This document shows positions 16,164 through 46,677 of a stretch of 46,907 nt of DNA, piece by piece. Below the pieces are notes generated by a model, which searched no databases, was not told where the DNA came from, and worked only from the letters and a program-made list of their open reading frames with translations. Numbering within the stretch: position 1 is the stretch's first letter; each line of letters begins with the position of its first letter. A program made the translations under genes and the position numbers. The stretch comes from a virus (taxonomy: Duplodnaviria; Caudoviricetes), in IMG/VR virus record IMGVR_UViG_3300048575_000380, positions 1 through 46,907 of that record. One strand, given 5' to 3'.

Positions 16164-16171
16164 GAGAAGGA

Positions 16172-17457: not shown

Positions 17458-17660
17458 CGCTGGTGTTCGACGATCAGGTGTTCCTGGCCGCGAACATCAG
17501 CGACAACGAGAAAATGATCGAGCAGGAGGGCGTCGGCGTCGATGCCGTCAACCTCGACACGCGCTACGACGACTTCCGCGGCATCGCCAGCGCGGCCTGG
17601 TGCCACCGCCTGTTGTCCACGGCGCCACTGCCGGTCCTGACCTCGGAAGCCTACTGGTGA
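17454..17660 (+). CDS. 68-aa paralog of the N-terminus of the next gene (nozzle N-terminal-like peptide)
   Basis: GTGA-coupled on both sides; shares TL..DQVFL...G.GV.A.NLDTR..DFRG...H.L.S...P.LTS..Y with the 17657 gene. Confidence 0.65.
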   Translation: MTLVFDDQVFLAANISDNEKMIEQEGVGVDAVNLDTRYDDFRGIASAAWCHRLLSTAPLPVLTSEAYW

Positions 17661-18217
17661 CGCTGCTGGTCGGCGATCAGGTGTTCCTGGGCTCGATCGA
17701 GGCCAAGAACCGCAAGAAGTTGCCGCTGGGCATCGGCGTGTACGCCGAGAACTTGGACACCCGGCGCAAGGACTTCAGGGGCCTGAGGGCCGCGACGCAC
17801 GTGCACACGCTGGTCAGCGAGACGGGACCGCTGCTGACCTCGCTGATCTACCCGCTGGAGTTTGGCGACGGCTTCAACGCGTCGAGCGACCTGCAGGAAG
17901 GCGACCTGTCGGAGGCGGCGGGCTCGATCAATGTCTCGACGGCGCTGGTGGCCGGCACGCTGGACGTGGTGATCGCCTATCAGACGCTCAAGGCCGAGGT
18001 TGAGGGGATCGATGTTTCGACGGACCTGGCGACCGGCGATCTGGTAACCGTCATCGCCTACCAGCAGATCAAGGCGGATCCCGATGGGATCGATGTTTCG
18101 ACGGACCTTGTGTCGGGCGACCTCACGACGGTCATCTCGTACGTGACGCACCGCGACCCGGCGGACGACGAAGGCGTCGACGTATCAACGGCCCTTGTGG
18201 GCGGGACACTCTCATGA
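17657..18217 (+). CDS. Tail protein: nozzle-like N-terminus fused to four G(I/V)(D/N)VST.L..G.L repeats (186 aa)
   Basis: GTG at 17657 overlaps the upstream stop; repeats of about 27-29 aa are visible. Confidence 0.7.
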   Translation: MTLLVGDQVFLGSIEAKNRKKLPLGIGVYAENLDTRRKDFRGLRAATHVHTLVSETGPLLTSLIYPLEFGDGFNASSDLQEGDLSEAAGSINVSTALVAGTLDVVIAYQTLKAEVEGIDVSTDLATGDLVTVIAYQQIKADPDGIDVSTDLVSGDLTTVISYVTHRDPADDEGVDVSTALVGGTLS

Positions 18218-20010: not shown

Positions 20011-20011
20011 C

Positions 20012-22087: not shown

Positions 22088-23799
22088 CGACCTACTTCGG
22101 GGGCGAGCAGGTCTCGGAACTGGCGGCGCTGCCGCCCAACGCCGGGATCGACGAGATCCGCGAGTACCTGCTTCGCATGCACCAGTGGGTGCGAGCACGC
22201 GAGCCGGTGGGCGCCGGCGATTCGTTGTCGAAGTTCGTTCTGCGCGGCGAGCTGGTGAAGCTGGGGCTGGTGGCATACGAGTCGGGCGTGGCGGGCGCGG
22301 GCAATGCCTCGATCGCGCTGACGAAGATCGTCGTCACCGGCGGCGGTGGAGGCGGCGGTGCGGCGGCCGTGTTGCCGGCCATGGACCTGACGGCCTCGGG
22401 CGCGGAGTTCGCCTTCCCCAGCGTTGGCAGCACCACCAGCACCAGCCCGGCGATCCTGTTCACGGCCAGCCTGACGCTGGTGGCCGGGCGGGTGCGGTTC
22501 CACGCGGAAGCCTTCGGCGCCGACCATCGATCGCTGGGCTCCATCACCCTGACCGGCGTGTCGGCCACGTCGGCCACGCTGACCCCGGCGAACTTCGTGG
22601 GCGGCATGGGCACCAGCGTGCGCTACGTGCGCGTGACGGCGGCGCTGGGCGATCTGCGCAAGACGGCCATCGCCTACCGCAGCGACGCAGGTGACAAGGC
22701 GCTGATCCTGGACTTGACCCGCACCTGGCAACTGGTGCCGGCGGCCGGCGACGGCAGCAGCGGGGACTTCGGCGACGTGGGCGCGCTGGTGACGATGAAG
22801 CGCGGCGCGGCCGACGAGACGGCGGCGTGGTCCTTCGCCATGGTGGCGGACGGCTGCGCGGCGACCCTGAACAACGGCCCGGGCCCGGTGACGGGCGCGG
22901 CGCAGGTGGCGCTGTCGGTGCACGCGATGGCTGCCGACGTGGCGACGGTGAAGATCACGGCCACGCGGGCCGGCAACCCGGCGCAGTCGGTGGTCTTCCA
23001 CGCAGTGCGCGCGAGCCTGGGGGCCACGTCCGGCCTGCAGGTGGCCGAGGACGATCAGGACACGGTGCAGCTTCAGGTCGGGAAGCTGACGGTCTGCACG
23101 AGCGCATCTGATGTCGTCGCCACGCTGCCGCCAGCCACTGTGCCGGCCGGCTCGGTCGCGGGCGTGTTGTTCACGAACAGCTCGCTCTTGAACGAGGTCG
23201 ACCCCGGCGGGCAATTGCTGGACGAATCCACCGACAGCCAGGTGGTGGACCCCAGGGGCCGAGCGTTGACGTTCATCCGCCTCGGCGCCGCGTTTGGGTG
23301 GATCACCGTCCAGAACCACGGCGACTTCATCAGCGAGGCCTCCGCCAGCGTGGCCGGTGAAGTGGTGGTGTTCTCCGGCACCTCGGGCAAGCGCGGTACG
23401 CGCGCGACCGGCACCGGCTTCGCCAAGCTGACGGACGGCGTGCTGAGCACCGATGACGCTGCGACGGTGCGCAGCGATCTCGGCGAACGGGTGGTGGAGC
23501 TTGAGGACGGCGCCACGATCGACGTGGACGCGGCCCTCGCCAACAGCTTCCGCGTGACGCTGGGCGGCAACTGCACCTTGGCCGACCCGACGAACCTGCA
23601 CGACGGGCAGGTGCTGTACCTGCGCATCCAGCAAGACGGCACCGGATCGCGCACGCTGAGTTTTGGCGGCATGTACATGTTCGAGGGCGGCGTGGCGCCC
23701 ACGCTCTCGACCGCGGCCGGCGCGATGGACTTCATGGTCTGCCAGTACGACGCGGCGGACGACACGCTGATGTGCTTCCTGCTAGCGGCAATGGGATAG
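22084..23799 (+). CDS. Tail fibre/spike-like protein (571 aa)
   Basis: Follows the nozzle; Gly linker, beta-rich domains, C-terminal FRVTLGGN.TL..PTN...QQDGTGSRTL.F domain. Confidence 0.65.
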   Translation: MTTYFGGEQVSELAALPPNAGIDEIREYLLRMHQWVRAREPVGAGDSLSKFVLRGELVKLGLVAYESGVAGAGNASIALTKIVVTGGGGGGGAAAVLPAMDLTASGAEFAFPSVGSTTSTSPAILFTASLTLVAGRVRFHAEAFGADHRSLGSITLTGVSATSATLTPANFVGGMGTSVRYVRVTAALGDLRKTAIAYRSDAGDKALILDLTRTWQLVPAAGDGSSGDFGDVGALVTMKRGAADETAAWSFAMVADGCAATLNNGPGPVTGAAQVALSVHAMAADVATVKITATRAGNPAQSVVFHAVRASLGATSGLQVAEDDQDTVQLQVGKLTVCTSASDVVATLPPATVPAGSVAGVLFTNSSLLNEVDPGGQLLDESTDSQVVDPRGRALTFIRLGAAFGWITVQNHGDFISEASASVAGEVVVFSGTSGKRGTRATGTGFAKLTDGVLSTDDAATVRSDLGERVVELEDGATIDVDAALANSFRVTLGGNCTLADPTNLHDGQVLYLRIQQDGTGSRTLSFGGMYMFEGGVAPTLSTAAGAMDFMVCQYDAADDTLMCFLLAAMG

Positions 23800-26594: not shown

Positions 26595-29500
26595 ATGGCC
26601 GTCGATTGGGACCAGATCTTCGGCGACCCAAAGCTCGGGTCGCCGCAGGAGGCGCCTGAGGCCGCGGCGGTTGCGGCACCGACGTCTCCGCGGTACGCCC
26701 CGGCGCCGAAGACGCAAACCGAAGCCGCTGCGCGGCTGGCCGAGGTGGCCGATGCGGAAGAGGACATCCGGGCCTGGGCCGAGAGCAAGCGGCTGAAGAA
26801 GGGTGGGGAGAAGTCGGCATCTGCGCCGGGTGGCGGCCCGGGCGATGCCGCCCCCAAGCCTGAGCGCAAGGCTGGGCGTGGGGTCAACTGGGATGAGATC
26901 TTCGGCCCCGAGCAAGCGCCGGCGCCGCCGCCTCCGGCGGCGCCAGGACTGCTGGAACGTGCGGGCACCTGGCTGCGCGAGAAAGCCACGTTGCCGATGC
27001 CTGATGCGTCGCACGTGACGGCAGAGCAGGCGCAGGGAATGCTGCCGGACGAAAGCGCAGGAACTGCGTCGCCGGCCGATCAGTCGGAGCCTGAGCAGCA
27101 GACGATCACCCGCGCCAGGGACCCGCGCTCGTTCGGCACGCAGCCAGACCGTCGTGCGCGCGATGCCTTCGCGGCGAGTGACCCGCGGCGCGTGGATCGC
27201 CCGCTGACGGCGGCCGAGATGCTGCAGCAGCCGGACCCGGACATCGGCCGGCGCGTGCTGGCCGAGCGGTTGCAGGAGAGCCAGTCACCCGAGCGTCAGG
27301 CGCGCGAGCGGGCGGAGGCCATCGCTGCTGAGCGGCGCCCGCAAGAGGCCAAGCCGCTGGAATGGACCAACCGCCAGATGGAGGATCTGCGGGCCGGCGT
27401 GAAGAACCCGGCGGCGCGCGGCGTTGTCTCTGGCGTCGCGGAACTCGGCAAGGTCGGCACCGGCGCGGTTCGCCTGGCGGCCGATCTGTTTGGTGCGGAT
27501 GCGGTTGCCCAGTTCGCCGCTGGTGCGGAGAAGAAGGCGGAGGCCACCAGCAACGGCGCGATGCAGGACCTGAAGGGCAACGACAAGCTGGTGGCCGAGG
27601 TGTTCTCGTCCATCACGAACTCGCTGCCGTCGTTGGCATTGGGCGTTGCCGGCGGGGGGGCGCTGCGCACGCTGTTCGCGCAGTCGGCGCTGCAGGAGTA
27701 CGGCGCCGGCCGCGATGCTGGCTTCGGCATCGGTGAGTCCGCGACCCGCGCCGGCATCATGGGCCTGGCCGAGGCCGCCGGCGAGAAGTTCGGCTTCGGC
27801 GAGCAGATCAAGCTGCTGAAGTCGGTGACCAAAGGCTTGCCGTCCGGCGAGATGGCCAAGGTCTTCGGCGAGATGCTGGTCAAGGAGGTGCCGGGCGAAC
27901 AGCTCACCACCCTGATGCAGACGTTGGCCGACAAGCTGGGGCCGGCCGCGCTGAAACCGGACGCCACTATGGCCGACTACCTGGAAGCGGCCGGCCAGAC
28001 GCTGAAGGTGACGCTGGGCCAGAGCCTGGTGATGGGCGGCGGCCCGGCGGCGCTGAATGGCGCGCGCCACGCGGCGGCGCGGGCCGATCAAGTCAGCGGC
28101 ATGTCGACGCCACAGATCATCGGCCAGATCGAGGGCGGGCTGCGAGCGCGCGAGCTGGCGAGCTTCATGGAGCCCGGGTCGAACACCGCGCCGACCGAGG
28201 CTCGCGCCGGCGCGCTCAAGCGCTTCGACGAACTGGCCGCGGCCTTCGGCATCAACCCGAAGGCGGTGGCGCGCGCGAAGGAAGCGGTCAACGGCATGCC
28301 GGCCGGCGACGTGCCGGGGTTCCTGGCGAAGCTGGCCGACTCGCTGTCGCAGAAGGGCCTGGTCGCCAAGCCGATCGACGCCGAGGGCATGCGCGGCCTG
28401 CAGGCGGCTGTGGCGCCGGAAGCTGAGGCGGGGGCCGACCAGGCGGTGGAAGAACCTGCAACGCCAGCGGCCGCTCCCGCTGCGCCGGCCGCCCAGGACT
28501 TCACCGGCCTGGACGAGACCATCGACCGCGCTGCGCACGAAGCGGCCACCAGCCCGCTGAACGATCGGGCCGAGCCGACCGACGCCCAGAAGGAGGCAGG
28601 GAACTACGCCAAGGGGCACGTCCGCATCAGCGGCATGGACGTGAGCATCGAGAACCCGAAGGGGTCGGTGCGGCGCAGCAAGGCCGACGAGGCGCAGCCG
28701 TGGGAAGTGCGCATGCCGGCGCACTACGGCTACATCCGCGGCAGCACCGGCTCCGACGGTGACCACGTGGACCTGTTCATCGGCGACAAGGGCGACAACG
28801 GCTCGTTCTGGGTCATCAACCAGAACAAGCCCGACTGGTCCTTCGACGAGCACAAGGTCGTCACCGGCGTCGACACCGCGGCAGAGGCCATCGAGGTCTA
28901 CCGCAGGAGCTTCGCCGACGGCTACGGCGACAAGCTGATCGGCTCCGTGTCGCAGCGCATGGATGCCGCGCAGATCAAGGCGATGTTGCCCGAGATGGGC
29001 AAGGCCGCGCCCGTCCACACCCCGAAGGCGACTGATGACCTGCAACAGCCTGACGTGGCAGTTCCTGCCGCGGTACCTGCAGGAACCCCTGCTGTTGGGC
29101 GTGATCAGCCAGGCGGAAGCAGCCGAACTGTGGGACCTGGCGCTGCTGAGCACGTCGCAGTGGATCCTGCCGCCGCCGCGCCTGCAGCCGGCCCTGCGCC
29201 GCATGCAACTGCTGCGGATGTGGGCGCCCGAGACGAAGCACTGACCCGCCCACTCGGCAAAGTCGGCCGCACGCCCAGCGCTGCCGAACCTGTCGAACTG
29301 CGCACCAACACCGACGGCACGCTGACGCCCTACCTCGGCAAGACGCCGATGCTGGACTTCGACAGCGGCGAGCCGATCGTGATCCCGGCCGGCGCGACCG
29401 ATGCGCAAGCGGTGGAGGCGATCCGCCAGGCCGGCGCCGTCAGCAGCCGGAGCAAGTTCTTCGGCGTTCAAGAGTCAACATCCGCCCCGGCCCCTGGCGA

Positions 29501-29633
29501 ATCCGTGGTGCAAGGGCAAATCGGGGTCGGTGAAGCCGGGCCCGGGGCGGACACCAAGAAGCCGGTGGGCGTGCAGGCCGTCGAGCGTCGCGTCACCTCG
29601 CTGAAGGCGCTGCTGCAGTGCCTGATGGCATGA
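26595..29633 (+). CDS. Polyvalent virion protein with an inorganic-pyrophosphatase-like (InPase) domain (1012 aa)
   Basis: PTDAQKEAGNYAKGH...IENPKGS.R...HYGYI.G..G.DGDHVD.F.G...FDEHKV (about 28570-28900); repeated V(D/N)WD(Q/E)IFG near the N-terminus. Confidence 0.8.
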   Translation: MAVDWDQIFGDPKLGSPQEAPEAAAVAAPTSPRYAPAPKTQTEAAARLAEVADAEEDIRAWAESKRLKKGGEKSASAPGGGPGDAAPKPERKAGRGVNWDEIFGPEQAPAPPPPAAPGLLERAGTWLREKATLPMPDASHVTAEQAQGMLPDESAGTASPADQSEPEQQTITRARDPRSFGTQPDRRARDAFAASDPRRVDRPLTAAEMLQQPDPDIGRRVLAERLQESQSPERQARERAEAIAAERRPQEAKPLEWTNRQMEDLRAGVKNPAARGVVSGVAELGKVGTGAVRLAADLFGADAVAQFAAGAEKKAEATSNGAMQDLKGNDKLVAEVFSSITNSLPSLALGVAGGGALRTLFAQSALQEYGAGRDAGFGIGESATRAGIMGLAEAAGEKFGFGEQIKLLKSVTKGLPSGEMAKVFGEMLVKEVPGEQLTTLMQTLADKLGPAALKPDATMADYLEAAGQTLKVTLGQSLVMGGGPAALNGARHAAARADQVSGMSTPQIIGQIEGGLRARELASFMEPGSNTAPTEARAGALKRFDELAAAFGINPKAVARAKEAVNGMPAGDVPGFLAKLADSLSQKGLVAKPIDAEGMRGLQAAVAPEAEAGADQAVEEPATPAAAPAAPAAQDFTGLDETIDRAAHEAATSPLNDRAEPTDAQKEAGNYAKGHVRISGMDVSIENPKGSVRRSKADEAQPWEVRMPAHYGYIRGSTGSDGDHVDLFIGDKGDNGSFWVINQNKPDWSFDEHKVVTGVDTAAEAIEVYRRSFADGYGDKLIGSVSQRMDAAQIKAMLPEMGKAAPVHTPKATDDLQQPDVAVPAAVPAGTPAVGRDQPGGSSRTVGPGAAEHVAVDPAAAAPAAGPAPHATAADVGARDEALTRPLGKVGRTPSAAEPVELRTNTDGTLTPYLGKTPMLDFDSGEPIVIPAGATDAQAVEAIRQAGAVSSRSKFFGVQESTSAPAPGESVVQGQIGVGEAGPGADTKKPVGVQAVERRVTSLKALLQCLMA
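29035..29244 (+). CDS. Nested +1-frame gene (69 aa) inside the 1012-aa gene
   Basis: GAAGG before the ATG; 64 of 69 codons end in G/C while the host frame becomes A/T-ending and low-complexity. Confidence 0.7.
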   Translation: MTCNSLTWQFLPRYLQEPLLLGVISQAEAAELWDLALLSTSQWILPPPRLQPALRRMQLLRMWAPETKH

Positions 29634-34592: not shown

Positions 34593-36315
34593 AGGCACCC
34601 TCAAGCAATCAACGGCCGTGACCGTCACGGTGCTGATGATCTCCAGCGCCGATCACATTGCCGGCAAGACCGGGCTGTCTGGCGGCCTGACGGTCTATGC
34701 GAGCAAAGCCGGCGGCGCGCCTGCTGCCATCACTCCAACCGTGACCGAGTTGGATGCTACGAACATGCCGGGCTTGTACTCGCTGGCTCTCACGACGACG
34801 CATACAAACACGCTGGGTGAACTCGCGATCAGGGTGTCTGGGTCCGGAGCCGATCCGACTGATGTCAAGTGGCAGATCTCGGCTCGGCTGAATGATGACC
34901 TGACCTACCCAACCATCAGCGGTCGATCGTTGGCGGTGGACGCGACTGGCCTAGCGGACGCCAACGTCGTCAAGGTGGGCCCATCGGGCGCCGGCACTGC
35001 TCAAACGGCGCGCGACATCGGTGCATCGGTGTTGCTCAGCAGCGGTACTGGCGCCGGTCAGATCAGCTTGAGCAGCGGTCTCGTTACCCTGGCGCCAGTG
35101 ACACACACCGGCGCGACGATCCCAACGGTTGCCACGCTCACTGGCCACACGGCGCAGACGGGAGACGCCTTTGCGCGGCTGGGTGCGCCCGCTGGTGCCT
35201 CGGTCTCGGCTGATGTTGCGGCCGTCAACGCCAGGGCCACGGACATCCAGGCGCGCCTGCCGGCGGCGCTGGTGAGCGGCAAGATCGACGCCAGCGTCAG
35301 CGCGCTGGCGTCGGGGCTGGATCTCACGGCGACGATGAAAGCCAGCGTCAATGCCGAGGCCGACGCGGCACTGTCTGACGTTGGCCTCACGACGACGATC
35401 ACCGGGCGCATCGACGCGGCCGTGAGCACGCGGCTTTCCGCGGCCGGCTACACCGCGCCCGACAACGCCACGATCAACGCAATCGCTGGCTACGTGGACA
35501 CGGAAGTAGCGTCCATCAAAGCCGTCACCGACAAGCTGGACACCACGCTGGAGGCCGACGGCGGGGTCTACCGGCTGACAGCCAACGCCCTTGAGCAGGC
35601 ACCGACCGGCGGTGGCGCGAGCGCGGCGACGATCGCGGCGGCGGTGTGGGATGAGGCGATCAGCGACCACCTCGGCGCAGGCAGCGCCGGCGCGTCGTTG
35701 AATGCGGCCGGCTCCGCTGGCGACCCGTGGACCACGACACTGCCGGGCTCCTACTCCGCCGGCCAGGCCGGCCACATCATCGGCACGAACCTGAACGCCA
35801 CGATCAGCAGCCGCTTGGCCAGCGGTGGCTACACGGCGCCGCTCGACGCCTCCGGCACCAGGTCGGCGCTCGGGCTTGCGGCGGCGAATCTCGACACGCA
35901 GCTCTCTGCAATCAGCAGCAAGACCACGAACCTGCCAAGCGATCCAGCCGATGCTTCGGACATCGCCGCGTCGTTCTCAACGGTCAACAGCTCGCTGTCC
36001 ACCATCGCCGGCTACATCGACACCGAGGTCTCTGCGATCAAGGCAAAGACCGACCTGATCCCCACGAGCCCGGCCGCCACCGGCGATGTGCCGAGCGCGG
36101 CCGCGAATGCTGCGGCATTGCTAGGCACCGCGGTTGAAGGGTCGGTCACCGTCGTGCAGTCGCTGCGACTCGCCAATGCGGCGCTGGGCGGCAAGGCCTC
36201 GGGGCTGGACACGACGAATCCGAAGTACCGCGACCTGGCGGACACCAAGGATCGCCTCGATGCCGTTGTCGACGCCAATGGCAACCGCACTGCGGTGACG
36301 CGCGACCTGAGCTGA
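34585..36315 (+). CDS. Repetitive fibre-like virion protein (576 aa)
   Basis: Ig-like N-domain (GKTGL...ELDATNMPGLY); duplicated IAGY(V/I)DTEV..IKA.TD and (T/S)RL...GYTAP blocks; C-terminal AALGGKASG...RDLADTKDR...DANGNRTAV. Confidence 0.7.
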   Translation: MFEGTLKQSTAVTVTVLMISSADHIAGKTGLSGGLTVYASKAGGAPAAITPTVTELDATNMPGLYSLALTTTHTNTLGELAIRVSGSGADPTDVKWQISARLNDDLTYPTISGRSLAVDATGLADANVVKVGPSGAGTAQTARDIGASVLLSSGTGAGQISLSSGLVTLAPVTHTGATIPTVATLTGHTAQTGDAFARLGAPAGASVSADVAAVNARATDIQARLPAALVSGKIDASVSALASGLDLTATMKASVNAEADAALSDVGLTTTITGRIDAAVSTRLSAAGYTAPDNATINAIAGYVDTEVASIKAVTDKLDTTLEADGGVYRLTANALEQAPTGGGASAATIAAAVWDEAISDHLGAGSAGASLNAAGSAGDPWTTTLPGSYSAGQAGHIIGTNLNATISSRLASGGYTAPLDASGTRSALGLAAANLDTQLSAISSKTTNLPSDPADASDIAASFSTVNSSLSTIAGYIDTEVSAIKAKTDLIPTSPAATGDVPSAAANAAALLGTAVEGSVTVVQSLRLANAALGGKASGLDTTNPKYRDLADTKDRLDAVVDANGNRTAVTRDLS

Positions 36316-36319
36316 AGCC

Positions 36320-36655
36320 GTGTTCGGCCGCACCTACTTCGGCGGACAGTACTTCGGCCCGGGTTACTTCGGGGGCGGCTCCGACACCGCTGCCCCGGGC
36401 GCCAGTGCCGCGCAGATCTGGGCCTATGTGCTGCCGAATGGCCTCACTGCCGGGCAGAACGTAGTTGGCATCTATTCGATGCTGCAGACCCTGCTGGGCG
36501 CACCGTGCCCGTCGGCTGACGACAACGCGGCCGCGGTGTTAGCTGCCTTGAGCGGCACCGAAATCCCGGTCAACGTGCTGAAGATGAACAGCGCGCCGGT
36601 GATCGGCACCGGCGCCGAAGCGGACCCCTGGAGGGGCGTGGGTGTTTCACCCTAA
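36320..36655 (+). CDS. Hypothetical protein with FGxxY repeats (111 aa)
   Basis: MFGRTYFGGQYFGPGYFGG; starts 4 nt after the upstream stop. Confidence 0.65.
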   Translation: MFGRTYFGGQYFGPGYFGGGSDTAAPGASAAQIWAYVLPNGLTAGQNVVGIYSMLQTLLGAPCPSADDNAAAVLAALSGTEIPVNVLKMNSAPVIGTGAEADPWRGVGVSP

Positions 36656-36833
36656 GAGCTTCAAGCCGGCCTCGTTCTCGCCGACGAGCTGGCGCTTCCC
36701 GCGCGACGTTGAGCCCCCGGCGCCCCCGACAGGCGGTGCCGACGACGGGCCACGCCGGCGCACCGACTTCACCGACGACGAGCTGATCGAGATCGCCGTC
36801 GCCATGATCATGAGCGGAGTGCTCGATGGCTAG
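36642..36833 (+). CDS. Hypothetical protein with FxPxS repeats (63 aa)
   Basis: GGAGG upstream; MFHPKSFKPASFSPTSW...DDELIEIAVAMIMSG; overlaps both neighbours. Confidence 0.65.
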   Translation: MFHPKSFKPASFSPTSWRFPRDVEPPAPPTGGADDGPRRRTDFTDDELIEIAVAMIMSGVLDG

Positions 36834-39800
36834 TTTCACCGCGTGCCTGAAGAAGGTATCCCTCGACCCTGCGGACAAGGCCGAGGTGATGGCCCGAGCG
36901 CGCCGGCATCGTGCCGACGGCGTGGCGCCGAGCGAAGCCGCAAAGCGCGCCGTGCGCGACCTGATCATCGAACTGCGCGGAGTGCAGCGGGAGGCCAAAC
37001 TGGCCGCGTCGCCAGCCGCGTCGCCTGCACCAAGTCCTGCCGCACCCACCGAGCGCAGGCACCCGAGCACCGTGATGGGCTCGCGCCTGCTGGCCGTGGT
37101 CAGCCGCCGCCTGGGCGGGCTGGATCCCGCCTGGCTGTCGGAGTTCAGCACCCGCTTCGAGACTGCCCGCAAGGGCAAGGACGGCCGCCCGGTGGTGCAA
37201 TGGCGCAATCCGATGGTGCCCGGCATCGGCAAGCTGTTCCGCCAGGGCGGGACGCAGGACCTGCAGCGCATCGCCGAGGTGATGGAGGAAGAGGGCTTCC
37301 TCTCGCCCGGCACCGTCGACGCGGATGCGAAGGCAGCCGGCGAGCAGGCAAAGGCGCTGATCCAGAAGGCGCTGAACCGCGAGGAAGTAAAGAGTCTTGA
37401 CGAGCAGGCCGCCGAGGCGCAAACCGCGCAGGATGCCGAACGACAGGCGTACTATGAGGGCCTGGACGCCGAGGCGGCGCGCGAAGCCGAAGCCGAGCGC
37501 GAGGCCATCATGGCCGAGTCGGAGGCCAAGGTCGATGGCATCGATCATTTGGCCGACGACGACATGGTGCCGTGGGAGCTTGCCGAGCCCTCGTCGCTGC
37601 AGCAGACCGCCGACTTCCTGGGCATCACCATCGAGGAACTGCGCCGTGAACAAGGACTACAAGGACCGCTTCGCCAAGATGAGCAAGCCGCAGCAGGAGG
37701 TGGTGAAAGCGATCGCGCGCATGCCGGTCGAGCAGCGCAGCCGCCTCCTGAAGCTCGAAGCGCTGCGCCGCAACGTGGACCTGAAGACGGGCAAGAAGCA
37801 CGAGGACTGACCCTCGAAGCGCAGACGCCGGCCGACCTCGAGGCCAAGGCCGAGCGCGAAGCGGCCGGCACCGCTGCTGAACAGGCCCGCCGCAAGGTTG
37901 ACCAGCAGCGGCTGCAGCGGCAAGCCGACGAGCGCGACACCCGCGCACGTGTCGACCAGACGGTCGGCGACTTCCAGTTGGGCCAGTCGGCCGAGCAGCA
38001 GCTTTCCGGCACGAACGACCTGTTCGAAGCCAAGCCCAACACCATCTTCACCGAGGACGCGGCCGAGAAGGCCCGCGCGATCCTGCGGCGCAAGCTGGGC
38101 CAGATCAACAGCGGCATCGACCCCGAGCTGGTGCAGGCCGGCATCACGCTGGCGGGCTACCACATCGAGCGCGGGGCCCGCAGCTTCGCGGCCTACGCCC
38201 GGGCCATGCTGGCCGACATGGGCGAGCTGGTGCGGCCCTACCTCAAGAGCTGGTACATGGCCGCGAAGTACGACCCGCGGCTGTCCGGCATGGAGGGCAC
38301 GAGCGGCGCCGCCGAGGTGGAGGCCGCGGACATCAACACCATCCCGGCGCAGAATGCCGCCCAGGAGACCCCCGATGTACCAGGTGCCCACCCCGATCTG
38401 GAACGAGATCGCCAGAACGCAGGAACTGGCAACGCCGCTGTGGAAGGCGCTGTTCCCGGCGAAGAACCTGCAGGCGGCGCTTCAGCCGCTGGAGGCCGAG
38501 ATGGCAGCAGCGGGCGCGGACGACCGGACGATCAGGGCGTTTCTGATGGTGGCACCGTGCTACCACGAGAACCTGGCGATCAGCCGGTTCATCGAGCAGA
38601 CCGGGCGGACGGACCTGCGGAGTTCCCTGCCCGAACTGGCGACGGCCACCGAAGCGACGACCCTGGCTTCGAGCGACCTGCGACTGGACCACGCCCAACA
38701 GGACAAGCTGCGCAACCTGCTGCTGGCCTACCGAACGAAGAGCGCGCCGCCGCCCAACGAGCCGCCGAGCGAATCGCCCCGGTAGCGGGCGACCTCGCCA
38801 ACATCCGCGCCACGCTGCCCTACCTGCTGCCCGGCCAGCAGGAGGACGTGCACAAGGCCGAGACGCGGCACCTGCTGCCCGGGGGCTACGGCTACCTGCT
38901 GACCAACGGCACCGGCACGGGCAAGACCTTCTCCGGCCTGGGCACGATCAAGCGCTTCCAGCGCGAGGGCAAGACGGACACGCTGATCGTCGTGCCCGAC
39001 GAGAAGATCATGGCCGACTGGGTGGCCTCCGGGCTGCCGATGGGCCTGACCATCACGCCGCTGAAGGACACGAAGGACGGCGGCGCCGGCATCACGATCA
39101 CGACCTACGCCAACCTGGGGCAGAACCTGGAGTTGGCGCGCCGGAAGTGGGACTTGATCGTGCCCGACGAGGCGCACCAGTTGATGCAGGGCGCCGACGG
39201 CGAAGGCACGCTGGCGATCGACGCGCTGCGCGCGATCAGCATGCACCCGCGCGGCTCGATCACGCGGTTCCGGATGCTGCACCACGACGAGCTGCAGCGT
39301 CAGCGCATCCTGAACGAGCGCCTGGAGGGCAACACCCGGATCCTGAACAACCCCGACACCATGGACCAGGTGCTGGCGGACGTGCGGGCCGAGAACGCGA
39401 AGCTGGACGCCGAACTGACGGCGCTGGCCGACAAGCTGGCGGCGGCCAGGAAGGCCGTGCAGGCCGAGGTGGAGGCGGCCCAGGGCGCCGGCCGCACGCG
39501 CGTGCTGGCGCTGTCGGCCACGCCTTTCGCCTACGAGAAGACGATCGACTGGGCCGAGGGCTACCTGTTCAGCTACGGGGAGCCGTCGACCGAGGGCCGC
39601 TCCTACAACCGCGGCGATGCGCGCGAGCAGTTCTTCGTGCAGCACTTCGGCTACCGCATGCGGAACAACAAGCTGACCGAGCCCGACGCCGGCGTGGACC
39701 GCGGCCTGATGCAGCGGCAGTTCAACACCTGGCTCAAGCGCGAAGGGGCGCTGTCCGGCCGCATGCTGGAGGTGGACGCGGACTACGACCGCCGCTTCGT

Positions 39801-42800
39801 GATGGTGGACTCGGCCGTCGGCAACCAGATCGACCAGGCCATCGAGTTCATCAACGACCAGCGCAAGGCCTTCGACGAGGCGCAGCCGAAGGACCAGCAG
39901 GCGCCCAACGGCTGGGCCTTCCTGGTCGGCGACCTGAACGAGGCCCTGTACGGCAAGCTGGGCCACCTGACCCGGCGCTACCTGCTGGAGGCGATCAAGG
40001 CCAAGGAGGTGATCCCGCACATCCGGGAGCACCTGGCCCTGGGCCGCAAGGTGGTGGTGTTCCACGACTTCAAGAAGGGCGGGGCGGTCAACCCCTTCGC
40101 CTTTGCCGAGCGCACGCTGCCGCCGCGCGGGCAGACGGAGATGGGCCCCGAGGACTACGCCAAGGCGCAGGCCGACGTGGCTGCCCACAACGAGGCGGTG
40201 CGCGCCTTCCGCGAGCGGTTCCCGGACCTGGCCGGCGGGGATCTGCTGAACGAGCTGATCCCGCCGGTGGAGCGCTTCAAGCGCGAGTTCCCCGACGTGC
40301 TGCTGATCAACGGCGACGAGAAGAAGGCCGACCTGCTGGCGCGGTACCAGCGCTTCCAGAGCGACGAGGCAGGCCCGACCATTGCGTTGGTGCAGTCCGA
40401 CAAGAACAAGGGCTGGAGCGGCCACGACACCACGGGCAAGCACCAGCGGGTGCTGTTCAACCTGGGCTTGCCGACGCAGCCGACCAAGACCATCCAGCAG
40501 GAGGGCCGGATCTACCGCACGGGCCAGGTCAGCAACGCCATGTTCCGCTACCTGAACACCGGCACGAACTGGGAGCGCTGGGCCTTCGCGCAGACCATCG
40601 CCGAGCGCGCCAGCGCGGCGGAGAACCTGGGCATGGGCGAGTCAGCCCGGGCGCTGAAGGACGCCTACATCGCGGCCTTCGAGGAAAGCGGCGACTTCCG
40701 CGCCGGGCACGAAGGCGAGGGCACCGGCGGCAAGGCCCGCGACGCGCTGGCGAACAACGCGCTGACGGACTACGACCGGGCCAAGTCGTTCTACTTCGGC
40801 ACGCAGAAGAAGGACGCCCGCACCAAGGCGCAGGAGGGCAAGGACTACTTCGCCACCCCGGAGCCCCTGGGCCTGAAGATGGCCGAATGGGCCGACGTGC
40901 GCGCCGGCGAAGACGCACTGGAGCCCAGCGCCGGCCACGGGGCCATCGCGCGCTGGCTGCCGGAAACTGCCAGCCGCACGGCCATCGAGCCCAGCAACGC
41001 GCTGGGCTCGCGCCTGGCGCTGGTGTTCGACGGCAAGATCGTCCGCGGCGAGTTCGAGGGCCACAACGTCGTCAACAAGTACGACGCGATCGTCATGAAC
41101 CCGCCGTTCGGCACGGGCGGCAAGACCGCGATCGAGCACCTGGAGAAGGCGGCCACGCACCTGCGCGACGGCGGGCGCATCGTGGCGCTGATCCCCACGG
41201 GGCCGGCGGCGGACAAGCGCTTCGAGCAGTGGTTCCACGGGGAACAGGAGCGCCCGGTCAAGCCGCTGGGCATCGTGACGCTGGACGGCCGGCAGACGCC
41301 GATCTACAAGGGCGACACGGTGACCAGCCGCGCGGCTTGGGCGCCCGAGGGCGTGGTGACCGGCTGGCGCGACGGCGCGCCGCTGGTGAAGGCGTCGGCA
41401 CCGGAGTTCCGCGGCGCCGGTGCTTCGCTGGTAGCCGAGCCGGCGATCCTGTCGGTGCAGCCTACCGGCACGCGCACCGAGAAGTTCAGCGCGACCGAAG
41501 GCCTGCACCTGGTGGCCGACATCAAGCTGCCGGCGGTGACGTTCGAACGCGCCGGCACCAAGGTGGCGACGCGGGTGGTGGTGATCGAGAAGCCGGGCAG
41601 GGACCGCCAGGCGCCGCAGCAGGTGAACCGCGATCTGAGCGACATCGACACCATCGGCGGCTTGTTCGACGCGCTGGAGCCGATGACGCTGGCGCCGCGG
41701 GCGAAGCCGGCGCAGCCGGTGGCGGCCCGGGTCGAGAAGGTGCCGGAGCGGGCCCAGGCGCAGGCCGCGAGCGCCGACCTGGCGCACCAGCAGGGCATCA
41801 AGCTGGTGGAGCACACCACCGCCAAGGGCAAGCTGCTGAAGGGGGTAATCCGCAAGAACCTGACCCGGCAGCAGGCCGAGCAGGTGGACCCCTACACCTT
41901 CCGCAAGGACGGCGGCTTCTTCATCCGGGCCGAGCACCTGCCCAAGCTGCAGGAGCAGTTCCCCGCCGATCAACCTCTGCTGTCGCGTGCCGCCGACGCG
42001 GCCCGCGGCATGCCGGCGCAGGACCTGCGGCGGATGGTGGACCGCGTGTCCGCCGGGTGGCGCGATGGCGGCCCGACGGTGACGGTCGTCACCACGGTGC
42101 AGGACCTGCCTCCGGCCATCGTCAACGCCCTGCGCAGCAAGAACGCCTTGGGCAACACCCGCGGCTTACGCCTGCCAGATGGCCGCGTCTACCTGGTAGC
42201 GGACAGGTTCAACAGCATGGCCGAGGCCCAGGCGGTGCTGTTCCACGAGGTCTACGGCCACGAGGGCCTGCGGGCTTTCCTGGGCGACGAGTACATCACC
42301 ACGATGGCGCTGCTGCGCGCGGCGAACCCGAAGCTGCGCGGCGAGGCCGAGGCTTGGTTCAGGGACAACGGCCGGGACGAGATCGCGGCGCGCGTGGCCC
42401 GCGGGATGTCGCAGAAGGAGGCGGAGGCCGTCGTTCGGGCCATCGCTGTCGAAGAGGCGCTGTCCGATCGTGCCGGCGACAACCCGCCGCCGAATGCGTG
42501 GAAGACGCTGATGTCCCGGCTGCAGGCTGCGCTGCGCAAGCGCGGACTGGGCTGGATCGCTGACAAGCTGGAGTCGATGACCGAGGCCGAAACGCACGCG
42601 GTGCTGATGGGCGCGCGGCGGGCGATCGACAAGCAGCAGGGCGATCTGCCCGGCTGGCTGCAGGACGGGCTGCTGCGCTCGACCGACCCCAACACGCCGG
42701 CCGACACGGTGCGCGCGTTCCGCGACACCGAGCGGGCCTACGGCGGCCGCGCCGCCCATGCGCAGGCGCTGGCCGCGGGCCGGACCCGGCTTCCCTACAG

Positions 42801-45800
42801 CCAGTGGGTGCAGGTGCGCACGCCGGCGTTCAAGGCGTGGTTCGGGGATTGGGAGGCGGCGCGGGCGCAGGATCGGCTGGACGCGATGGCGCCAGTGGCG
42901 CTGGCGCTGCCCGAGCACTTGCGTGGCGCGTCCCTGGTGCAGTTGCGCGATGCGGTGAAGGCCCGCCTGGATGCCATGGCGGATGCCAACACCACGGCTC
43001 ACCACCCGGTGCTGGGCGAGGTGGGCTTCAGCAAGGGCAACAACAAGAAAGCCGTCAGCACGTCGGCCACGCCGGAGAAGCTGCAGGCGGCGCATGAGAT
43101 CGTGTCCGTGATCGAATCGGGCATCCACGCCGCGAGTGCGCTCAGCACCGCGCCGAACGAAGCCCCGCACGGGGTGACCTATCACACGCTGGCAACGAAG
43201 GTGGAAGCCTTCGGGCGGGAGTTCGTGGCGCTGGTGACGGTGAAGCAGACGCCGAACGGGCAGCGCTTCTACAACAACATCGCCGTGCAGCCTGCCAATG
43301 AGAAAGCCCCAGCGGCATATCCGGGGGACCGTGCACCCGGAGATGTCGGTTCCGCCGCGGCCTTCGCTGGGGCAGACGGCAGTGTGCTACCGGCCATGCG
43401 TCGCGTCAACCCGGAGACCGTCTCCAAGGCCACTGACCCCGCCACCGGCGAGCCGCGGGTGATGTTCCACGGCACCGGCGCGGACTTCGACCGCTTCAAG
43501 GGCAAGCAGGCCGAGGCCATCTTCCTGACTGACGAGCCGATCTTCGCGCAGGCCTACGCCGACACCTCGGCCAAGTGGATGCAGCACCGTGAACAGGACG
43601 GTGCGGCGCGGATCATGCCGATGTTCGCCAGCGCCAAGAGCCCGTTCGACTACCAGAACGCCAAGCATCGCGCGCGCGTCATCGAGATCGCCTTGGCGCA
43701 GAACGGCGGCAAGAACGGTGCCGGCGAAACGGTCATCGCCAACGACGATGGCACCCCGAGCTTGTGGTCGGCGCCGGTCATAGAGTCGGGCCTGACCGAG
43801 CCAGCCGGCGACGGAAACTGGCTGCTGGTGGAACAGCCGTGGATGCAGGACGCCATCAAGGCCGCCGGCTTCGACGCCTTCTACGTCAGCGAGAGCGGCT
43901 TCAAGAACCTGGCCCTGTACGAGTCGGCGCAGGTGAAATCGGCGGTGGGCAACCGCGGCACCTTCGACCCGAACGAGGCCAGCATCCTGCTGAGCCGCAA
44001 GCCCCCGGCCGACCCGGTGCTCGCCAGCGCCATGCGCAAGGCCGGCATCAACGGCCGGCCGACGCTGCGCGGCAAGGTCAGCCGCTTCCTGACGCGCTGG
44101 CGCGACCTGACACGCGACCGCAAGGCACTGGCCGACGAGGTGCGGCAGGGCACGCTGGACCAGTTCTACGGCATCCAGCGCGCGGTGCGCTCCGAGCTGG
44201 GCAACCTGCCGATGGAGCAGGACCCCTACATCACGGCCCGCCTGGCGAACGGCGGCGCCAGCTCGGTGATGCGGGGCCTGCTGCTGCACGGCCAAGCCAA
44301 GTGGGCGGCCAACGGCCAGCATCTGGAGAAGATCGACGGCACCCAAGGCCTGCTGGACATCCTGAAGCCGCTGGGCGACGACCTGGACCACTTCTTCGGC
44401 TGGATGGTGGGCAACCGCGCCGCGCGGCTGAAGGCCGAGGGCCGCGAGAACAACCTGAGTGACGCCGAGATCAAGGCGTTGCAGGCCCTGGCGACGCCCG
44501 AGCGCCTGGCGAAGTTCCAGCAGGCAGCCCAGCAGTACGCCCAGTTCAAGCGCAGCGTGCTCGACGTGGCGCAGGAGGCCGGCCTGATCGACCCGGAAGG
44601 CCGCAAGGCCTGGGACCACGCCGACTACATCCCGTTCTACCGCGAGATCGACGCCAAGGCGGTGTTCTCGCCCACCGGGCACAAGGGGTTGGCCGGGCAG
44701 TCGTCTGGCATTCGCACCCTCAAGGGCGGCGAGTCGATGCTCAACGACCCGATGGAGAACCTGCTGATGAACTTCAGCCGGTTGATCGATGCCAGCCTGA
44801 AGAACAACGCGATCCGCAAGACCATCTACGCGCTGGAGAACCAGTCCGACCTGGTGGAGCGCGTGGGCTACGACATGGCCCCGGCCCTGGTGCCGCGCAG
44901 CCAGGTGGAGACCATGTTGAGGAAGGCCGGCACGCCCGAGGCGGTGCTGCAGGCCATGCCGGCGGACGTGTTCGATGGTATCGGCAAGATGTGGGCGATC
45001 AGGGCCCCGAGCGACCCAGACGTGGTGCGCGTGATGATGGGCGGCAAGCCGGTCTTCTTCCGCGTGCACGACCCGCTGCTGCTGCGCTCGCTGACGAGCT
45101 TCGTGCCCTACGACTTCCCGATGTCGTCGGTGTTCCGAGGCGCCCGGAGGCTGCTGACGGCCATGGTGACCAGCACGCCGGAGTTCATGGCGCGCAACTG
45201 GATCCGCGACTCGCTGGCTGCGCAGGCGATCACGAACACGCCATTCAACCCGCTGGAGTCGGTCAAGGGCATCTGGAAGGCCTACAAGGAGAACCAGGCC
45301 TACGAGGCGATGCTGTTCGCCGGCGCGAGCTTCCAGTCCGGCAACGTGAACGCGGGCGACCCCCAGGGCACGGCCGTCGGCATGCGCCGCGCGCTGCGAG
45401 AGCGCGGTTTCGACGCCAGCTCGATCGACTCGTTCATGGGCTCGATCATCGACAACACGGCCCGGGGTTGGGAGAAGTACCGCGAGGTCGGCGAGGCGGT
45501 CGAGAACGCCAACCGCAACGCCATCTACGAGGCCGCGGTGGGGTCGGGCAAGAGCGCCACCGCGGCTGCGTTCGAGGCCAAGGACTTGATGGACTTCAAC
45601 CTGCGCGGGGACTGGGCCGGGTACCAGATCCTGGCGGACGTGCTGCCGTTCTTCAATGCGCGCGTGCAGGGCCTGTACCGGCTGGGCCGCGCGGACCCGA
45701 AGCGGCTGATGGCCGTGGGCATGCTGATGACCGCGGCCACCGCGATGCTGGCCTTGGCAAACGCCGGCGAGGACTGGTACGAACGCCTGCCCGACTGGGA

Positions 45801-46677
45801 CAAGGACACCTTCTGGCACGTGAAGGTGGGCGGCGTTCACCTCCGCATCCCGAAGCCCTTCGAGCTGGGCGTGCTGTTCGCCACGCTGCCGGAGCGGATC
45901 GCCCGCGGCGTCTTGGGCTACGACTCGGCCAAGAAGACGATCTCGCGCGTCTACTCCAACGTGCGCGACCAGCTCTCCATCAACCCGATGCCGCAGGCCA
46001 TCCGGCCGGCCACAGAGGCCTGGGCCAACTGGGACAGCTTCCGCGGCCGGCCGATCGAGAACATGGCCGACGAGGGCCTAAGCCCGCACGCCCGGTTCGA
46101 TGCGCGGACCTCCGACACCATGCGCGTGCTCGCCAACGCGGCCCCGTCGGTGACGGACTGGGCTGGCCTGAGCCCGAAGAAGCTGGAGTTCCTGATCAAC
46201 GGCTACTTCGGCACGGTCGGCATGTACGCGATGGGGGTCTCCGACGCCATGGTGCGCTCGATCGAGGGCCGGCCAGCGCGGCCCGCCTGGCGCATGGACG
46301 ACATCCCGGTGATCCGCGCCTTCTACGCCGAGGACCCGCCCAAGGCCACCGTCTTCGAGAGCGACATCTACCAGATGCGCGGCGAGGTCGAGAAGATCAT
46401 GAAGGAGTTCAGGAAGGGCGCGCAGAGCCGCATCCCGTCCGAGCAGCAGGCCGCCAAGGACCTGCTGACCAAGGAGAGCGACAAGATCAAAGCCTACGGC
46501 ATCGTGGTCGGCGTCGCCAAGCAGGTCTCGAGCATCAACAAGCGGATCAGCGACATCTACCTGGACCCGAACCTCGACGCCGGCCAGAAGCGGGTGGAGG
46601 TGGACAAGCTGCTGACGAAGAAGGCCGCCATCGCGCAGCAGGCGGCGCAGAACCCATCGGTGCGTGCCGTGTTCTAG
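36826..46677 (+). CDS. Giant polyvalent (DarB-like) protein, 3283 aa: SF2 helicase, N6-adenine MTase, metallopeptidase, LPD3-like, ART-like and LPD38-like domains
   Basis: GTGTGKT, DEAH, LSATP, QQEGRIYR; LEPSAGHG and MNPPF; HEVYGH; QWVQVRTPAFKAWFGDW; MFHGT...IFLTD...QVKSAVGNRGTFD; PDWDKDTFW...IPKPFELG. Confidence 0.9.
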   Translation: MASFTACLKKVSLDPADKAEVMARARRHRADGVAPSEAAKRAVRDLIIELRGVQREAKLAASPAASPAPSPAAPTERRHPSTVMGSRLLAVVSRRLGGLDPAWLSEFSTRFETARKGKDGRPVVQWRNPMVPGIGKLFRQGGTQDLQRIAEVMEEEGFLSPGTVDADAKAAGEQAKALIQKALNREEVKSLDEQAAEAQTAQDAERQAYYEGLDAEAAREAEAEREAIMAESEAKVDGIDHLADDDMVPWELAEPSSLQQTADFLGITIEELRREQGLQGPLRQDEQAAAGGGESDRAHAGRAAQPPPEARSAAPQRGPEDGQEARGLTLEAQTPADLEAKAEREAAGTAAEQARRKVDQQRLQRQADERDTRARVDQTVGDFQLGQSAEQQLSGTNDLFEAKPNTIFTEDAAEKARAILRRKLGQINSGIDPELVQAGITLAGYHIERGARSFAAYARAMLADMGELVRPYLKSWYMAAKYDPRLSGMEGTSGAAEVEAADINTIPAQNAAQETPDVPGAHPDLERDRQNAGTGNAAVEGAVPGEEPAGGASAAGGRDGSSGRGRPDDQGVSDGGTVLPREPGDQPVHRADRADGPAEFPARTGDGHRSDDPGFERPATGPRPTGQAAQPAAGLPNEERAAAQRAAERIAPVAGDLANIRATLPYLLPGQQEDVHKAETRHLLPGGYGYLLTNGTGTGKTFSGLGTIKRFQREGKTDTLIVVPDEKIMADWVASGLPMGLTITPLKDTKDGGAGITITTYANLGQNLELARRKWDLIVPDEAHQLMQGADGEGTLAIDALRAISMHPRGSITRFRMLHHDELQRQRILNERLEGNTRILNNPDTMDQVLADVRAENAKLDAELTALADKLAAARKAVQAEVEAAQGAGRTRVLALSATPFAYEKTIDWAEGYLFSYGEPSTEGRSYNRGDAREQFFVQHFGYRMRNNKLTEPDAGVDRGLMQRQFNTWLKREGALSGRMLEVDADYDRRFVMVDSAVGNQIDQAIEFINDQRKAFDEAQPKDQQAPNGWAFLVGDLNEALYGKLGHLTRRYLLEAIKAKEVIPHIREHLALGRKVVVFHDFKKGGAVNPFAFAERTLPPRGQTEMGPEDYAKAQADVAAHNEAVRAFRERFPDLAGGDLLNELIPPVERFKREFPDVLLINGDEKKADLLARYQRFQSDEAGPTIALVQSDKNKGWSGHDTTGKHQRVLFNLGLPTQPTKTIQQEGRIYRTGQVSNAMFRYLNTGTNWERWAFAQTIAERASAAENLGMGESARALKDAYIAAFEESGDFRAGHEGEGTGGKARDALANNALTDYDRAKSFYFGTQKKDARTKAQEGKDYFATPEPLGLKMAEWADVRAGEDALEPSAGHGAIARWLPETASRTAIEPSNALGSRLALVFDGKIVRGEFEGHNVVNKYDAIVMNPPFGTGGKTAIEHLEKAATHLRDGGRIVALIPTGPAADKRFEQWFHGEQERPVKPLGIVTLDGRQTPIYKGDTVTSRAAWAPEGVVTGWRDGAPLVKASAPEFRGAGASLVAEPAILSVQPTGTRTEKFSATEGLHLVADIKLPAVTFERAGTKVATRVVVIEKPGRDRQAPQQVNRDLSDIDTIGGLFDALEPMTLAPRAKPAQPVAARVEKVPERAQAQAASADLAHQQGIKLVEHTTAKGKLLKGVIRKNLTRQQAEQVDPYTFRKDGGFFIRAEHLPKLQEQFPADQPLLSRAADAARGMPAQDLRRMVDRVSAGWRDGGPTVTVVTTVQDLPPAIVNALRSKNALGNTRGLRLPDGRVYLVADRFNSMAEAQAVLFHEVYGHEGLRAFLGDEYITTMALLRAANPKLRGEAEAWFRDNGRDEIAARVARGMSQKEAEAVVRAIAVEEALSDRAGDNPPPNAWKTLMSRLQAALRKRGLGWIADKLESMTEAETHAVLMGARRAIDKQQGDLPGWLQDGLLRSTDPNTPADTVRAFRDTERAYGGRAAHAQALAAGRTRLPYSQWVQVRTPAFKAWFGDWEAARAQDRLDAMAPVALALPEHLRGASLVQLRDAVKARLDAMADANTTAHHPVLGEVGFSKGNNKKAVSTSATPEKLQAAHEIVSVIESGIHAASALSTAPNEAPHGVTYHTLATKVEAFGREFVALVTVKQTPNGQRFYNNIAVQPANEKAPAAYPGDRAPGDVGSAAAFAGADGSVLPAMRRVNPETVSKATDPATGEPRVMFHGTGADFDRFKGKQAEAIFLTDEPIFAQAYADTSAKWMQHREQDGAARIMPMFASAKSPFDYQNAKHRARVIEIALAQNGGKNGAGETVIANDDGTPSLWSAPVIESGLTEPAGDGNWLLVEQPWMQDAIKAAGFDAFYVSESGFKNLALYESAQVKSAVGNRGTFDPNEASILLSRKPPADPVLASAMRKAGINGRPTLRGKVSRFLTRWRDLTRDRKALADEVRQGTLDQFYGIQRAVRSELGNLPMEQDPYITARLANGGASSVMRGLLLHGQAKWAANGQHLEKIDGTQGLLDILKPLGDDLDHFFGWMVGNRAARLKAEGRENNLSDAEIKALQALATPERLAKFQQAAQQYAQFKRSVLDVAQEAGLIDPEGRKAWDHADYIPFYREIDAKAVFSPTGHKGLAGQSSGIRTLKGGESMLNDPMENLLMNFSRLIDASLKNNAIRKTIYALENQSDLVERVGYDMAPALVPRSQVETMLRKAGTPEAVLQAMPADVFDGIGKMWAIRAPSDPDVVRVMMGGKPVFFRVHDPLLLRSLTSFVPYDFPMSSVFRGARRLLTAMVTSTPEFMARNWIRDSLAAQAITNTPFNPLESVKGIWKAYKENQAYEAMLFAGASFQSGNVNAGDPQGTAVGMRRALRERGFDASSIDSFMGSIIDNTARGWEKYREVGEAVENANRNAIYEAAVGSGKSATAAAFEAKDLMDFNLRGDWAGYQILADVLPFFNARVQGLYRLGRADPKRLMAVGMLMTAATAMLALANAGEDWYERLPDWDKDTFWHVKVGGVHLRIPKPFELGVLFATLPERIARGVLGYDSAKKTISRVYSNVRDQLSINPMPQAIRPATEAWANWDSFRGRPIENMADEGLSPHARFDARTSDTMRVLANAAPSVTDWAGLSPKKLEFLINGYFGTVGMYAMGVSDAMVRSIEGRPARPAWRMDDIPVIRAFYAEDPPKATVFESDIYQMRGEVEKIMKEFRKGAQSRIPSEQQAAKDLLTKESDKIKAYGIVVGVAKQVSSINKRISDIYLDPNLDAGQKRVEVDKLLTKKAAIAQQAAQNPSVRAVF
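37646..37810 (+). CDS. Nested +1-frame gene (54 aa, basic, helical) inside the giant gene
   Basis: GAGGA before the GTG; 52 of 54 codons end in G/C; host frame is A/T-ending there. Confidence 0.7.
   Translation: MNKDYKDRFAKMSKPQQEVVKAIARMPVEQRSRLLKLEALRRNVDLKTGKKHED
38375..38785 (+). CDS. Nested +1-frame gene (136 aa) inside the giant gene
   Basis: AGGAGA 6 nt before the ATG; globular-looking MYQVPTPIWNEIART...; GC3-rich, while the host frame is a G/R/P/D-rich linker. Confidence 0.78.
   Translation: MYQVPTPIWNEIARTQELATPLWKALFPAKNLQAALQPLEAEMAAAGADDRTIRAFLMVAPCYHENLAISRFIEQTGRTDLRSSLPELATATEATTLASSDLRLDHAQQDKLRNLLLAYRTKSAPPPNEPPSESPR
43298..43390 (-). ncRNA. Candidate small antisense RNA embedded in the giant gene
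   Basis: Perfect 9-bp inverted repeat 43306-14/43365-73 enclosing a hairpin at 43316-45; on the minus strand it is preceded by CACACT (43381-86) and followed by TTTCT. Confidence 0.45.

Follow-up and report, generated by a model that had tools for sequence, protein, structure and literature searches.

A 136-aa gene is nested in the +1 frame of a giant phage gene

The window analyzed here, the whole 46,907-nucleotide stretch of IMG/VR record IMGVR_UViG_3300048575_000380, is a provirus record that is 74% complete. One of its genes (the host gene) encodes a giant protein and contains a second, far shorter gene in another reading frame. The relevant features are:

8020-23799, + strand: virion morphogenesis module (terminase, portal, major head, tail fibre, internal virion protein)
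36826-46677, + strand: host gene, encoding a 3,283-aa DarB-like large polyvalent protein (Pfam matches and motifs)
37646-37810, + strand: second nested +1 ORF, 54 aa, with a GTG start, GAGGA upstream, and relatives in two other loci
38363-38368, + strand: Shine-Dalgarno (SD)-like AGGAGA, 6 nt before the nested ATG; SD enriched among relatives
38375-38785, + strand: nested 136-aa gene, with a conserved core of about residues 1-118 and a predicted eight-helix fold
38377-38724, + strand: host-frame linker across the nested gene, rich in Gly, Ala, Asp, Ser and Arg and predicted to be disordered
38791-40800 (end approximate), + strand: SF2 helicase-like module in the host frame (ResIII match, motifs)
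40860-41250 (bounds approximate), + strand: adenine methyltransferase core in the host frame (EPSAGHG at 40921, NPPF at 41098)

The host protein contains an SF2 helicase, adenine methyltransferase motifs, an HEXXH motif, LPD3, ART-PolyVal and LPD38, and the matches to LPD38, ART-PolyVal, LPD3 and ResIII are all above the Pfam cut-offs. Since it combines multiple LPD and enzyme domains in a single, very long polypeptide, it is by definition a large polyvalent protein. The helicase motifs are Walker A (GTGTGKT, from 38908), DEAH (39166), SATP (39514) and QQEGR (40495), and there is a weak match to a Strawberry-notch C-terminal domain (Helicase_C_4, 22.7 bits versus a Pfam cut-off of 30.5). Because the morphogenesis module lies upstream on the same strand, the host gene can be assigned to the provirus's late structural region. 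A second large protein, encoded at 26595-29633, partly matches DarB-like PHROG profiles (residues ~616-809), and these profiles are the ones matched by other giant virion proteins. Between LPD3 and ART-PolyVal (43246-43366) the codon bias of the host gene dips briefly, and no other frame clearly takes over.

The nested gene is an ORF from ATG to TAG that lies in the +1 frame of the host ORF, across host residues 517-654. The first-pass annotation had described an AGGAGA and ATG, a helical product containing PIWNEIART, LWKALF and IRAFLMVAPCYHENLAISRFIE, and an end about 120 nt before the Walker A motif. All of these were borne out: the SD-like sequence and the three peptide stretches are present, the fold is predicted to be all-helical, and the Walker A motif begins 123 nt past the nested stop. 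That annotation had also called the host frame here disordered filler, and modeling agreed. In a host-frame model of 400 aa from 38008 (34 aligned sequences), pLDDT was below 50 at residues 124-239, corresponding to about 38377-38724, with confidently folded parts on either side.

Codon signal and translation start of the nested gene

By every sequence test, 38375-38785 is a real gene. A codon-usage score trained on the phage's own genes flipped to the +1 frame at only two places, the 38375-38785 ORF and 37606-37850, and favored the host frame elsewhere along the host gene; the flip at the nested ORF exceeds chance. Host-frame GC3 was mostly 0.85-1.0, compared with 0.47-0.53 over the 136-aa ORF and 0.35-0.53 across both flipped regions (the 136-aa ORF and 37646-37810). 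The +1 frame is open 5' of the ATG to at least 37898 (188 codons in the window), yet the +1 codon signal begins at the ATG.

The nested gene appears to have its own translation start, as indicated by the conserved Met1, the enrichment of SD sequences, and the upstream in-frame stops. Of the aligned relatives, 96% retain Met1. The nested ATG has an SD core in front of it in 34 of 47 non-redundant loci, compared with 70 of 803 out-of-frame ATGs within the helicase and 133 of 971 +1-frame ATGs upstream. A +1 stop lies immediately 5' of the ATG in 6 of the 47 loci, which argues against entry by frameshift, and within 10 codons or fewer in 17. That the +1 frame is reached by ribosomal frameshifting, or is not translated at all, would suit the long open stretch upstream of the ATG in the window, and a GC-rich host linker can leave the +1 frame open by chance. 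Set against the conserved start, the stops, the SD enrichment and the frame-specific conservation described below, this explanation is hardly credible.

We found no sigma-70-like promoter in 36300-39200 (a weak test at 69% GC), and nothing unusual in the predicted RNA fold around the nested start (z -1.5). In an Acinetobacter-type relative (L159), contigs of four RNA runs span the region, with level and start not readable from them; in three raw-read runs no reads fell on the region, and the fourth run is probably DNA.

Selection on both frames

Comparison among relatives indicates that the nested frame and the host frame are both under selection. We used 47 loci, the window included, whose nested proteins are less than 90% identical, after dropping five loci in which the host frame is not fully open. 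Nested-frame identity averaged 40%, against 24% for the host frame across the identical stretch of DNA, and the nested frame was the more similar in 1081 of 1081 pairs, with the alignment built on the nested protein and so leaning its way. Conservation at the three codon positions of the nested frame was 0.51, 0.59 and 0.45, lowest at the third, and the same bases encode 32% hydrophobic residues in the nested frame versus 11.5% in the host frame.

When nested codons were resampled synonymously, 189 host-frame stops were expected in the 47 loci and none was observed, in a set that had been chosen for an open host frame. This deficit stands because only three of the four helicase-less loci that were dropped have host-frame stops (4 stops in total). 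In the window alone the open host frame was not significant (P 0.40), so the evidence for host-frame openness comes from the relatives.

A widespread family with a predicted helical fold

The relatives point to a widespread, unannotated gene in a new protein family tied to a phage helicase module. A word-indexed search gave 18 relatives at E≤0.01, and an exhaustive search gave at least 277 clusters (50% identity) at E≤0.001; members are 121-143 aa. Homologs thus exist in the +1 frame; their absence, together with the lack of a translation signal, was what the first-pass annotation had named as grounds for giving up the gene. The nested protein had no match in Pfam, PHROGs or NCBIfam, the ESM Atlas search returned no family match, and the best hit among sequences of solved structures had an E value of 0.076. 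The absence of so widespread a folded family from Pfam, PHROG and NCBIfam may be explained by its being hidden in a linker.

AlphaFold2 (132 sequences) predicted eight helices over residues 6-118 with a mean pLDDT of 95, and an unstructured tail. Foldseek with this model found nothing at E≤0.001 in PDB or BFVD, and the best VIA-align match had a Z of 4.8 (rmsd 4.2, 88 residues aligned); missing structural matches are no proof of a new fold. The polar residues N10, E65 and E93 are nearly invariant. The family is mildly acidic (median net charge -2), which does not suggest DNA mimicry. There were no longer fused forms among 7,999 candidates, a weak test.

The nested gene keeps a conserved place beside the helicase

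The nested gene was found directly before the helicase in nearly all loci, whichever of the two was used for the search. The locus sets share contigs, so the counts below overlap and are neither independent nor additive. The small protein as query led to 63 loci (53 viral, 10 from genomes). In 58 of these it is nested +1 in an open host ORF and the helicase follows at once; one of the others is cut by a contig end (host frame open) and four are bacterial bins without the helicase. Metagenome loci gave 24 of 26 nested before the helicase and two without helicase. Searching with the helicase first, we found the nested gene in 20 of 20 loci and, in a further search, in 79 of the best 80 of 547 loci, always in +1. 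Eight GenBank phage records hold the full helicase-methyltransferase and the same eight hold the small gene, which is unannotated in the five of these phage records examined (Skulduggery, ZX1, 45A6, Vibrio 1.232.O and Parlo). In Skulduggery, a phage that grows on Pseudomonas fluorescens SBW25, it begins at position 33577 of NC_070827.

This association persists as the surroundings change. The nested gene tracks the helicase through host lengths from ~1,240 aa to more than 5,000 aa, and is retained in five loci in which other sequence is inserted between it and the helicase (gaps of 261-963 nt). The first-pass annotation had asked whether homologs always sit 5' of this helicase. They do in 79 of the best 80 of 547 loci, nested in +1, but "always" does not hold: one locus (L151, a 20-kb record, 33% complete) has a fused, full-length helicase match and no nested gene, and 20 standalone enzymes, described below, have none within 3.5 kb. 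We sought, as the ancestral arrangement, a separate small gene directly before a separately started helicase and did not find one; a candidate, L223, was rejected since its apparent separation is a frameshift in a GA run.

Several loci differ in the form of the enzyme. Acinetobacter-type loci (L159:2053-5883, L155:2047-5757, L170 and L172) have a short helicase-methyltransferase of ~1,240-1,340 aa together with the nested gene, and a ddrB-ParB gene precedes the enzyme in both such loci that were scanned. In L036 (helicase from ~8420) and P0270 the helicase is split by an insert of ~350-400 aa, possibly an intein; a 1,255-aa standalone relative carries Pfam PF14528.

Loci in which the nested gene or the helicase is missing

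The helicase-methyltransferase also exists as a standalone form of ~850 aa, from Bacteroidota where the source is named. Aligning with this enzyme, we found 66 viral loci, 46 of them fused and 20 standalone (2 partial). The nested gene is in 46 of 46 fused forms (45 cleanly nested, one with a GA-run frameshift just after it), and no member of the family lies within 3.5 kb of any of the 20 standalone forms or anywhere along an Aquimarina plasmid that carries the standalone enzyme. The standalone enzymes retain the helicase-methyltransferase motifs. We scanned 13 of their neighbors, and ten match Pfam, including DnaB (3), SSB, RusA, PcfJ and PcfK; the scanned neighborhoods are replication-type regions, not virion modules. 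In a quick tree of 45 helicases, a branch with support 75 separates the 13 standalone rows from the rest, and a fused form is their neighbor. The tree suggests that absence of the nested gene in this clade is one event, of uncertain direction since the root is not known. The standalone forms come from low-GC genomes, in which a diverged partner could escape detection. The clade comprises L203-L221, L234 and L236, all ~850-aa helicase-methyltransferases on low-GC viral contigs, with replication-gene neighbors where tested.

Conversely, an intact nested gene occurs without the helicase in six loci, four in bacterial genome bins and two in metagenomes. The cognate helicase was not found in any of the four bins, which are incomplete, and in three of them the host frame has stops. 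One of these orphans adjoins a type III restriction-modification pair and another a PemK/MazF gene near tRNA-Leu; the third is close to tRNA-Pro, and the fourth follows a host-gene remnant. They may be decayed prophages or retained genes. The orphan at L054:8001-8393 ends 64 nt from the convergent type III restriction-modification pair, and the host gene upstream of it is frameshifted; the one that adjoins PemK/MazF near tRNA-Leu (L057) is flanked by three 35-nt hairpin-like repeats (115-149, 180-214 and 861-895).

Comparison with known systems

The host protein resembles the P1 DarB polyvalent dyad (PMC5512222) in being a giant multidomain protein with an SF2 helicase and a TP...NPPF adenine methyltransferase in a structural module. 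It is not a canonical DarB, because the domain order is reversed. The canonical dyad is an LPD36-methyltransferase followed by an SF2 helicase, whereas here the helicase (38908-40495) precedes the methyltransferase (40921-41098) and there is no Pfam LPD36 match. The same source describes DarB as a head protein guarding DNA that has been injected, and proposes this DNA as the target of the methylase-helicase pair (PMC5512222). Mass spectrometry has found a DarB-like protein of phage JC1 associated with virions (PMC9144972), and the Parlo homolog of our host protein is annotated as DarB-like (PMC6606913). By analogy with canonical DarB, and from its gene context, the host protein would likewise be packaged and protect against restriction. 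The nested gene is not described in the available part of the DarB account (PMC5512222), and the available texts on Parlo (PMC6606913) and ZX1 (PMC9505181) cover the giant protein with no mention of an inner gene. We found no published report of the nested gene in the literature searched, which was mostly without subscription papers (for example, that on the Bcep22 genome) and supplements.

The products of Rz and Rz1 work together. The arrangement described here is like that of Rz1 in Rz (spanins; PMC9144972 and PMC10269572), a whole phage gene inside another on the same strand. As in embedded genes of the Rz1 type, a whole ORF lies in the other frame of a longer ORF, with what appear to be its own start and selection on both frames. 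However, Rz1 is a short lipoprotein encoded in a small lysis gene, whereas the nested product is a globular helical protein of 121-143 aa inside a 10-kb gene, and the host frame across it is merely linker.

In Bacillus subtilis, comS inside srfAB is an out-of-frame internal gene with its own start. So is GndA within gnd of E. coli, an out-of-frame product that acts on the host-frame protein Gnd (bioRxiv 10.64898/2026.10.22.760973); the nested protein may act on its host-frame protein in the same way. GndA and comS are microproteins, in contrast to a folded domain conserved across many phage lineages.

The P1 Dar accessory proteins Ulx and DdrA are also small proteins encoded near a giant antirestriction protein, but they come from separate genes and have no profile similarity to the nested family. 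The hhalign probability was 0.1% for each (single-sequence templates) and the nested protein had no PHROG match, indicating that the nested protein is neither Ulx nor DdrA.

Proposed function of the nested protein

The data fit an inhibitor, a chaperone, and a loading factor alike. The reading we favor, at a little less than an even chance, is that the small protein is dedicated to the helicase module as a partner, binding it in the producer cell and keeping it folded and off until packaging. By analogy with DarB and from gene context, the giant protein would be packed into the head and then injected. The small protein would be made by internal initiation on the same late mRNA, tying its supply to that of the giant protein, and would be left behind at packaging, with the helicase-methyltransferase active only on injected DNA. 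Nesting would hold partner and enzyme on one cassette during the shuffling of polyvalent domains. Of the two frames, that of the small gene is probably the more ancient, the host linker being a read-through of it.

A regulator or partner of the helicase-methyltransferase module had been proposed at the outset. The tie between a real nested gene and the module held (79 of the best 80 of 547 loci); binding or regulation of the module is what we infer from the linkage to the helicase and the absence beside standalone copies. A protein required when the enzyme is synthesized for packaging, and expendable when it is made from a replication region, is what one would expect of a partner keeping the helicase folded and inactive in the producing cell. 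We attempted to predict a complex of the nested protein (132 rows) with the 820-aa helicase-methyltransferase (42 rows), and obtained scores of 0.00, 0.67 and 0.00, which we count neither for nor against binding.

The same distribution, with fused forms in structural modules and without standalone forms among replication genes, would be produced by a capsid-loading adaptor like the P1 Dar accessory proteins, one that helps the giant protein into the head irrespective of activity. P1 antirestriction needs DdrA, DdrB, Hdf and Ulx, with no homologs found in Bcep22-like phages (PMC9144972), and ddrB-ParB genes adjoin the short Acinetobacter-type forms. However, the nested gene follows the helicase and not the N-terminus or the capsid genes, the packaging signal of P1 DarB lies within its first 30 residues (PMC9024508), and Ulx and DdrA do not match the family, so that we consider an adaptor unlikely. 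A fixed position is also expected from physical linkage alone, and an older, unrelated small gene could have been engulfed by in-frame fusion of upstream sequence to the helicase gene and held there by that linkage. The nested frame is indeed conserved and folded while the host frame is low-complexity filler, intact copies exist without helicase in the six loci, and the 41 other short +1 candidates in 51 host ORFs (below) mean that engulfment may be common. This passive origin seems quite unlikely to us, since flanking polyvalent domains shuffle freely while the gene remains beside helicases that are 34-68% identical, and no locus has the gene standing separately elsewhere in the phage genome.

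The orphan copies raise the idea of a product made in the lysogen to inhibit the helicase-methyltransferase that related phages bring in on injection (superinfection exclusion), with the bacterial orphans serving as an anti-anti-restriction defence. The four intact bacterial copies without a cognate helicase, the host-frame stops in three of those bins, and the settings beside the restriction-modification pair, PemK/MazF and the tRNA genes are in line with it. We nevertheless find it distinctly improbable, given that no sigma-70-like promoter was found in 36300-39200, weak as that test is, and that the orphans may stem from prophages that decayed recently, in bins that are incomplete. Near-perfect co-occurrence with the fused enzyme and the nearly invariant N10, E65 and E93 are what one would expect of an obligatory, co-packaged subunit needed for activity on injected DNA; such a subunit is very improbable, because standalone enzymes retain their motifs with no family member nearby and L151 has no nested gene.

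The nested gene bears on how DarB-like proteins are restrained before packaging and on which accessory proteins Bcep22-like phages use instead of those of P1. What is annotated as a single giant gene holds two or three genes at the least. The nested gene can be removed leaving the giant protein unchanged, and the cultured phage Skulduggery offers a direct test.

Other nested ORFs in giant genes

When 51 host ORFs were scanned blind for codon signal, the family gene was recovered in 40 of them and 41 further short nested ORFs turned up, all in +1 and in at least seven small families. These short extra ORFs had no consistent cognate downstream domain. Acidic linkers can yield +1 SD-like words and ATGs by chance, and weak short ORFs may be noise. 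In Bcep22 gp75 (NC_005262; L199:12338-12661, host codons 1463-1570) we found an unannotated 107-aa +1 ORF with a strong SD, which sits 5' of the methyltransferase motif and is unrelated to the main nested family; a scan of P1 darB found no nested ORF.

The main nested gene also suggests that what looks like a disordered linker in a polyvalent protein is in some cases the by-product of a gene in a different frame. A broader proposal, doubtful though not far-fetched, is that giant injected proteins hide regulators in +1 linkers. Each enzyme module would have a cognate nested inhibitor or chaperone 5' of it, the main family serving the helicase and others serving modules in the DarB order (such as the 107-aa ORF of Bcep22 gp75), and bacteria would keep orphans to disarm phages.

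Smaller ORFs recur in several loci. The 54-aa ORF at 37646-37810 in the window gave the strongest codon signal of the blind scan; its product is basic and helical-looking, with relatives in L004 and L005. A family of ~50-aa +1 ORFs (L038:12120-12284, L043:12174-12344, L049:12090-12245 and L066:7461-7613) occupies two different positions in the host genes, and Bcep22 gp75 has a weaker 54-aa +1 ORF at host codons 870-924. In four loci (L007:3881-4042, L015:7851-8000, L017:7845-8000 and L022:7842-8000) a short basic +1 ORF has its stop abutting the ATG of the main nested gene, and the two form a two-gene nested run.
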